DNA of 56,322 bases, filler included, from Squatina squatina (taxonomy: Eukaryota), in the NCBI GenBank assembly GCA_031763465.1. It is 4 parts of 3 records of this genome, joined end to end, with 100 filler letters (N's around TTAATTAATTAA, not from the genome) between each part and the next. Parts side by side here need not be neighbours in the genome. Positions count along the whole stretch, not along the records: positions 41,190 to 56,322 come from JARFOE010000001.1; 3 more parts are not named here. The stretch is one strand, 5' to 3'. Positions 51,662-52,100 of this stretch are shown piece after piece (the first letter of the stretch is position 1; each line of letters starts with the position of its first letter). The translations under genes and the position numbers were made by a program. The notes beneath the pieces are model-generated. The model was not told where the DNA came from. It ran no database searches and was given only the letters and a program-made list of their open reading frames with translations.

Positions 51662-51740
51662 GACAGTACATCACCATTGCTGAAGTGCAATACCAGTATA
51701 AGAAAACAGCATTGCACAATCGCAGTGGTGGTTCACTGTA
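51662..51740 (-). ncRNA. MIR367: pre-miR-367 orthologue; predicted 3p UAUUGCACUUCAGCAAUGGUGA at 51692-51671
   Basis: 20/22 identical to recalled hsa-miR-367-3p AAUUGCACUUUAGCAAUGGUGA; seed AUUGCAC; hairpin tcaccattgc..gtgcaat / attgcac..gcagtggtgg closed by acagt/actgt; syntenic LARP7 intron. Confidence 0.9.
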
Positions 51741-52032
51741 GCCGTTAATTATCCTGCACAAAATGAATCTTTTCTCATGCTCTAGTGCCCCTAACATAGA
51801 TCTTTGGCAGTTACCATGTTAAAAGCATGAGACATTTCTCCCAGTACAGCTTTTAGTCAGATCCCTTTCATTTCATACAACCAACCATTTAGCATGTTAT
51901 GAAAAACCCTGCTGTCTTTTTAAAAAAAAACAACTTCCTTGAACACATTCAACAGTTACAATACCAGTGTAGTTATTTCTTCCTCGGGCAGCAGTTTGAG
52001 ACTGTGGCTGTGAGGCCAAGAATGAAGTATCC

Positions 52033-52100
52033 ACTACTACTTCAACATAAAAGCACTTACTCAACTTTTATCACAGAAAGGCTTCTATGTTGACGTAACA
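52033..52100 (-). ncRNA. pre-miRNA most similar to miR-302b (H7); predicted 3p UAAGUGCUUUUAUGUUGAAGUAG at 52059-52037
   Basis: 19/23 identical to recalled hsa-miR-302b-3p. 5p arm ACGUCAACAUAGAAGCCUUUC resembles 302b-5p ACUUUAACAUGGAAGUGCUUUC; loop starts UGUGA; first hairpin in the transcript, as 302b is in mammals. Confidence 0.85.

Follow-up and report, generated by a model that had tools for sequence, protein, structure and literature searches.

In amniotes, the miR-302/367 cluster lies on the antisense strand of LARP7 and consists of 302b, c, a and d followed by miR-367, which closes the cluster (10.1101/497131, PMC4703056). The human and mouse order b/c/a/d/367 in LARP7 intron 8 (10.1101/497131) agrees with a reading of the present locus made from the DNA sequence before any search (the sequence-only reading), which had placed miR-367 last in mammals. 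In human, transcription of the cluster begins 153 nt upstream of 302b, under the control of OCT4, SOX2 and NANOG (PMC4703056). The a-d duplications within the intron are dated to before the bird-mammal split (PMC2817437), and two reviews set the origin of the cluster in tetrapods (PMC7564603, PMC4703056). In the count of Peterson et al., elephant shark, coelacanth, human and the jawed-vertebrate ancestor have four Mir-430 genes each (PMC8789304), and MirGeneDB names Mir-430-P1 to P4 in elephant shark and catshark (PMC8728216). The Xenopus LARP7 cluster (miR-302, miR-367; MirGeneDB P1, P3, o4) likewise appears as several Mir-430 genes and Mir-92-P2a in one run of rows, with Mir-92-P2a at one end, as in amniotes, in a list that gives no direction (PMC8728216). 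Other fishes carry tandem miR-430 arrays (Rfam RF01413, clan CL00096), in which hairpins with the seed AAGUGCU in the 3' arm are repeated (PMC10417697).

The window analysed here is a stretch of 56,322 nt from the genome of Squatina squatina, and the cluster is located in its last part (41190-56322), at about 8.24 Mb on G000:C1. LARP7 exons on the plus strand flank hairpins on the minus strand, so the cluster is antisense within a LARP7 intron (Table 1). This shark locus is orthologous to the miR-302/367 cluster. It shares with the amniote cluster the host gene, the antisense strand, the AAGUGCU seeds of the 3' arms, a 302b-like first hairpin, a miR-367 identical at 20 of 22 positions, and a TATA box and Sox-Oct-like site upstream. 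Unlike the amniote cluster, it carries miR-367 directly after the first intact hairpin, contains seven 302-type hairpins instead of four, one with a variant seed, as well as one decayed copy (X), and spans about 2.9 kb including gaps, compared with 684 bp (PMC2254598). In transcript direction, the order is H7, X, miR-367, H6, H5, H4, H3, H2 and H1, the 155-N gap aside.

Table 1. Features of the cluster and its surroundings. Positions are those of the window; organisms A, C and E are relatives represented by contigs from sequencing runs.
Feature	Position	Strand	Evidence and remarks
Next LARP7 exon seen (...AKVNDEGTQP...)	53272..53397, bounds approximate	+	Exon map by tblastn
Gap, 100 N	53087..53186	.	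Likely holds the missing LARP7 exon (KEWMDLK...); placement inferred
Conserved upstream region, putative promoter	52262..52990	-	729-nt alignment in A and C
H7, first hairpin, miR-302b-like	52034..52101	-	Top mir-302 match of the genome search (Rfam, 43.6 bits); also found in A, C, E
X, decayed miR-302-type hairpin without seed	about 51765..51835	-	Fold z -2.9; 2/200 shuffles as stable
miR-367 orthologue	51668..51734	-	Rfam mir-367 37.9 bits; z -5.8; predicted mature 3p 51692-51671, seed AUUGCAC
H6, miR-302-type, variant seed AAGUACU	51298..51364	-	Rfam 22.5 bits; z -3.7
Assembly gap, 155 N, between H6 and H5	50837..50991	.	Bridged by no contig seen
H5, miR-302-type, one-base insertion in 3' arm	50662..50731	-	Rfam 29.2 bits; z -5.7; 3' half covered in A, C
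H4, miR-302-type	50379..50445	-	Rfam 31.1 bits; z -5.8; present in A, C
H3, miR-302-type	50153..50221	-	Rfam 32.7 bits; z -5.6; covered in A, C
Assembly gap, 590 N, between H3 and H2	49444..50033	.	Bridged in A and C
H2, miR-302-type, 87.5% identity to H4 over 72 nt	about 49350..49429	-	Rfam mir-302 match; present in A, C
H1, miR-302-type, seed AAGUGCU, without the shared 3' flank motif	49243..49307	-	Rfam mir-302 22.3 bits; z -6.9; on the LARP7 exon's contig; present in A, C
LARP7 coding exon ending ...VIPLRVLSK	48768..48910, start approximate	+	tblastn matches of shark LARP7 proteins; splice donor GT at 48911; delimits the cluster at its far end
miR-430 array contigs	C360660, C953257, C35752, C243955, C210977, C204545 (L047-L052)		Unit holds about three different hairpins

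Hairpins were called with Rfam at E values up to 10 over 48900-53800, and all of them fall on the minus strand. H1-H6 score 22-33 bits with the mir-302 model, the model matches to H4, H3 and H2 spanning 50386-50440, 50154-50220 and 49365-49416. The best window matches, 43.6 and 37.9 bits, stay below the Rfam gathering scores (55 for mir-302, RF00668; 54 for mir-367, RF00735), and a search of the window at gathering scores gave no Rfam match; the hairpins are therefore not filed as Rfam members, and orthology rests on position and sequence. The genome searches scored 65 candidates for mir-302 and 67 for mir-367, and the miR-367 hairpin is the single RF00735 match among the latter. All eight intact hairpins fold into single stems with z from -3.7 to -6.9, and none of 200 shuffles is as stable, the z values being optimistic for windows that were pre-selected. 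The seed 8-mer TAAGTGCT occurs six times in 2,206 nt (0.08 expected). By hand count against Table 2 of PMC2254598, the predicted mature miR-367 is identical to human miR-367 at 20 of 22 positions, and its agreement with miR-92 hardly extends beyond the first 10 letters.

AAGUGCU occupies positions 2-8 of the 3' arm in six of the seven intact 302-type hairpins. H6 instead carries AAGUACU; the bare AAGUGCU at 51221 was ruled out as a hairpin (z +1.07). The 3' arm of H6 is a near-exact reverse complement of the 5' arm of H4 and H5, giving the seed AAGUACU, and conversion between the arms of one hairpin could be its origin. In organism A, H6 differs by one substitution and one gap in 95 nt, both at the loop; for comparison, the upstream block differs there by 50 substitutions in 729 nt. 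Five of the six hairpin substitutions listed against relatives lie in loops or preserve pairing. This conservation in relatives supports a function of the hairpins. Between H5 and H4, the segment 50540-50585 (minus strand) is a collapsed remnant of another downstream copy, in which the start of the 5' arm is fused to the shared 3' flank motif and the centre is missing.

The sequence-only reading had described the order as H7, miR-367 and then H6 to H1. Rfam matches and folds sustain this succession, but miR-367 is second only among the intact hairpins, with X in between. An arrangement with miR-367 last is not found, as six hairpins come after it. A very improbable alternative is that the order was created by the scaffolding of short contigs. 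The assembly is fragmented into 1.15 million contigs and interrupted by N every 1-2 kb, it lacks one LARP7 exon, and no contig spans the 155-N gap, all of which speak for an artefact. The contigs themselves speak against it. H7, miR-367 and H6 share one N-free stretch (50992-53086), as had been claimed and as the gap map bears out, and another N-free contig carries both the LARP7 exon and, at a distance of 330-520 nt from it, H1 and H2, without a miR-367 in the interval. Because H1 and H2 share that contig with the exon, miR-367 cannot be last, whatever the scaffolding.

The order was further checked on contigs of relatives from five sequencing runs (organisms A-E), out of 17 that cover the region to a small extent. 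In organisms A and C, which come from the same study and look closely related, one 2.05-kb contig holds the exon, H1, H2, H3, H4 and H5, spanning the 590-N gap and leaving no room for miR-367 behind, and one 3.7-kb contig holds H6, miR-367, H7 and the upstream block. A 1.52-kb contig of organism E, from a different study, again holds H6, miR-367 and H7. Organisms B and D have no piece on the hairpins among those listed, which carries no weight on the order. No contig joins H5 to H6, either in the window or among the relatives' contigs examined. The H2-to-H4 distance is about 460 nt shorter in A and C than in the window. Of the gaps within the hairpin array, the sequence-only reading had noticed the 590 N between H3 and H2 but missed the 155 N between H6 and H5. 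These single contigs of A, C and E, together with the placement of H1 and H2 on the exon's own contig, support the view that the order is no scaffolding artefact, which it had stated for H7, miR-367 and H6, and elephant shark lists the same order.

This comparison with another cartilaginous fish, which had been proposed as a check, relies on the row order of MirGeneDB 2.1 Supplementary Table 2 (PMC8728216), where some newly added species are given in genomic order and miR-17~92 appears in canonical order. The elephant shark rows run Mir-430-P4, P3, P2, Mir-92-P2a, Mir-430-P1, placing miR-367 second, as here. The tuatara rows run P1, P2, P3, P4 with Mir-92-P2a last, and those of X. laevis run Mir-92-P2a, o4b, P1b, P3b. 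For a caecilian, only P1 among P1-P4 is given, plus Mir-92-P2a, in rows that appear sorted by name; the table holds no coelacanth rows (PMC8728216). Mir-92-P2a is taken to be miR-367 because of its position in tuatara. Provided that this identity holds, a chimaera and Squatina both have miR-367 in second place, and it is terminal in frog and reptile. The agreement of elephant shark and Squatina makes it likely that the order is common to cartilaginous fishes; taken together, the order is almost certainly both real and shared by them. By row order, Cmi-Mir-430-P1 to P4 and Cmi-Mir-92-P2a thus show the Squatina arrangement, with three downstream copies against six, in a comparison of gene lists. 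The catshark genes Sto-Mir-430-P1 to P4 are named counterparts in the same release (PMC8728216).

The order is already implicit in the MirGeneDB gene list for elephant shark and is hence not new data. A literature search, whose reach did not extend to subscription journals, figures or the MirGeneDB site, found no paper on cluster order in cartilaginous fishes. New here are the decayed 302c-like hairpin X, the conserved H6 seed variant AAGUACU and a separate miR-430 array.

X carries the 10-mer TTTAACATGG, expected 0.008 times, a motif chosen after X was seen. In Table 2 of PMC2254598 it is found in human 302b* and 302c*, and it occurs in none of H1-H7. With a 3-nt gap allowed, the 5' arm of X matches 302c* at 16 of 22 positions, 302b* at 13 of 23 and 302a* at 12 of 22 (hand count, PMC2254598). 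This arm (51808-51832) aligns in A, C and E and the 3' part does not; between H7 and miR-367, the three organisms have 173-179 nt more than the window. On the simplest reading, X is a second upstream copy damaged by deletion in the Squatina lineage. It suggests that the ancestral core held a second copy upstream of miR-367, amending the core of 302b and miR-367 that the sequence-only reading had proposed. Neither Rfam nor a profile of H1-H7 gives a match to X on the minus strand, and MirGeneDB 2.1 annotates no elephant-shark Mir-430 copy between P1 and Mir-92-P2a (PMC8728216 supplement); both facts count against the second-copy reading.

The same hairpin bears on an unlikely history, in which miR-367 of the jawed-vertebrate ancestor was already flanked by 302-type copies on either side, the downstream ones then disappearing from tetrapods and the extra upstream ones of sharks decaying. 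A copy with a tetrapod-type 5' arm upstream of miR-367, aligning in three other organisms that have more sequence there, would fit such an ancestor. So would the downstream copies, which are common to elephant shark and hence at least as old as crown cartilaginous fishes. However, two sets of losses are required, neither of the tetrapod lists seen in the MirGeneDB 2.1 supplement (tuatara, X. laevis) has Mir-430 copies flanking Mir-92-P2a, and the elephant shark interval is again without an annotated copy (PMC8728216).

H7 is 302b-like, as had been claimed: its 5' arm matches human 302b* at 18 of 23 positions, against 14 of 22 for 302a* and 13 of 22 for 302c* (hand count, PMC2254598). Its 3' arm matches human b, c, d and a at 19, 18, 17 and 16 of 23, and its shark neighbours at 15-18 of 23; position 22 is G in A, C and E, where the one-letter lead of 302b over 302c is gone. 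The human 302a-d 3' arms agree with each other at 20-21 of 23 positions and those of shark H2, H3, H4 and H6 at 17-22 of 23 (counts that exclude H1 and H5, which have indels), whereas the shark arms match the human ones at only 14-17 of 23, each being nearest 302d (hand counts, PMC2254598). The 3' flank motif GGRATYTCT follows H6, H4, H3, H2 and the collapsed copy, at 50558 (five matches, 0.03 expected). H5 has a shifted form of it, and it is absent after H7 and H1.

Since the copies resemble those of their own lineage, the best fit, with a probability of about 0.52, is that a small core expanded separately, behind miR-367 in cartilaginous fishes and in front of it in tetrapods. On this account, the ancestral core would have comprised a promoter, a 302b-like copy, probably a second, 302c-like copy, and miR-367. 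The six downstream hairpins would have arisen by tandem duplication in cartilaginous fishes, and tetrapods would have built their extra copies in front of miR-367. Unequal crossing-over may have extended the array on a different side in each lineage, with a gain in seed dosage every time. The flank motif common to H6, H4, H3 and H2 counts for these separate expansions, and the sequence-only reading, which had inferred independent expansion of a 302b-367 core, finds support in the mutual likeness of the downstream copies and in the caecilian with P1 and Mir-92-P2a. That the downstream copies form one clade, or that they originated after the split instead of having been lost in tetrapods, is not established by these comparisons.

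The trees are confined to the shark LARP7 hairpins and hairpins of the shark miR-430 array. On 89 columns, with the array as outgroup, H1-H6 form a clade in 343 of 1000 bootstraps, a grouping that the AU test does not reject (p-AU 0.43), and H7 joins H1 in 509 of 1000, both counting against separate expansions; the four clade tests inside the cluster give p-AU 0.24-0.43. An earlier tree without outgroup separates H2-H6 from H7 and H1 at 76/91, which is weak. The trees settle no order inside the cluster. The likeness within lineages is equally expected from gene conversion within an array, which likewise counts against separate expansions, as does the G at H7 position 22 in A, C and E, which removes the lead of 302b over 302c. 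Further points on that side are the unbridged junction between H6 and H5, the unplaced LARP7 exon, Rfam scores below gathering and the origin of A and C in one study, with an apparently close relationship.

The four ancestral Mir-430 genes of MirGeneDB and Peterson et al., and an elephant shark count of 1+3 equal to the amniote four, also weigh against separate expansions. They lead to a history that we consider quite unlikely, with four ancestral miR-302 genes kept one-to-one as P1-P4. Here miR-367 moved once, or was duplicated with loss of the other copy, gene conversion wiped out the signal of orthology, and Squatina added three copies. The names P1-P4 in elephant shark and catshark (PMC8728216), the four ancestral genes (PMC8789304) and the agreement of copy counts fit this history, and chicken miR-1811 offers a miR-367-like duplicate inside the cluster (PMC4703056). 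The 5' arm of H3 also matches human 302a* at 16 of 22 positions (hand count, PMC2254598). Yet the MirGeneDB 2.1 renaming (old P2 to P1, P3 to P2, P1 to P3; PMC8728216) tracks position in the cluster, and no tree is seen behind it in the available material. The mature downstream arms show no ordered c, a, d pairing with human by hand comparison (PMC2254598), and one hairpin must hop locally across three others.

Separate expansions, if repeated on different sides, would favour selection for seed dosage over distinct paralogues. The shark cluster bears both on the tetrapod origin given in reviews and on the four ancestral jawed-vertebrate copies of MirGeneDB. The locus predates the shark-tetrapod split, probably with its putative Sox-Oct promoter; the four-copy form may not. 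The locus is a variant of a known cluster, which refines microRNA evolution and adds no new kind of system.

Upstream of H7, the conserved block contains TATAAAT at 52319 (motif scan). The composite at 52836-52824, which we take to be Sox-Oct-like from its consensus, is the only one-mismatch match in the window. A poly(A) hexamer, AATAAA, is located at 50135, between H3 and H2, and none directly follows miR-367. On the side of the LARP7 3' end, a polymerase II promoter with the TATA box about 220 nt before H7 and the Sox-Oct-like site about 500 nt further up would yield one long antisense precursor, as expected by orthology with the mammalian cluster. Drosha and Dicer would then free the 3' arm microRNAs, six with AAGUGCU, one with AAGUACU and one with AUUGCAC. 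By analogy with the mammalian cluster, these may down-regulate transcripts for differentiation and the cell cycle in early embryos, with candidate targets of the Lefty, TGFBR2 and CDKN1A kind (PMC4703056).

The best protein matches of the host gene (14 of 453 candidates) are all elasmobranch LARP7, with sawshark at 85% and sevengill shark at 76%. The contigs of relatives place H1-H5 in the intron after the ...PLRVLSK exon (intron 8 in mammals). A 51-codon LARP7 exon is absent from the window and the assembly, save as a spliced retrocopy on contig C386452, and when three contigs flanking the gaps were searched against the genome, none overlapping them turned up that would close the gaps. In mouse, the distance from LARP7 exon 9 to the miR-302/367 start downstream of it is within 2.1 kb (10.1101/497131). 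By analogy, the missing exon likely sits in the gap at 53087; relatives' contigs continue 1.4 kb past 52990. A position in the 155-N gap is less likely: the gap length equals the predicted exon length and AG precedes it, but GT does not come after. Contig C386452 was ruled out as the missing exon, being a spliced retrocopy without hairpins; its piece at 675-905 joins both exons flanking the cluster intron, and similar retrocopy-like contigs occur in the relatives' runs. The contig ends in a high-copy SINE-like fragment (53001-53086), which does not align at that place in the contig of organism A and is the likely cause of the adjoining gap. Upstream of the first LARP7 exon seen and on the opposite strand, 43900-45973 (minus strand) holds an exon for the rod end of an intermediate filament (Pfam Filament, E 2e-14) and a frame of 318 codons that has no Pfam match. 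LARP7 residues 59-104 match on another scaffold (C115), and nesting or mis-scaffolding are both possible for these frames.

A second locus in the same genome is a tandem miR-430 array on six unplaced contigs, with matches of 42-46 bits at best and a unit of about 1.03 kb. The seven LARP7 hairpins lie on one side of an 86/96 branch when six hairpins of this array are the outgroup, and the RF01413 genome search gave seven matches, none of which is listed at the LARP7 locus. Unlike fish miR-430 arrays, the LARP7 hairpins score best as mir-302 and form no homogeneous 1-kb repeat, and the spacers between H1-H7 do not align with each other. The downstream copies are thereby ruled out as members of the miR-430 array. 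A pattern search for further clusters was uninformative (37 matches, 37 in the control). The cluster and a separate array in one genome argue for two old paralogous loci. Tentatively, and with less than even confidence, the ancestor can be pictured with promoter, 302b, a 302c-like copy and miR-367 beside an already separate miR-430 array, cartilaginous fishes having built an array of their own behind miR-367, including a conserved hairpin with the new seed AAGUACU and hence a new target set. If so, the names P2-P4 on shark copies would reflect position, an ancestral cluster of four genes would be too high a count, and the tetrapod origin given in reviews would be off by a whole node. One array contig (L048) holds two further hairpin types, one with the seed AAGUGCA.
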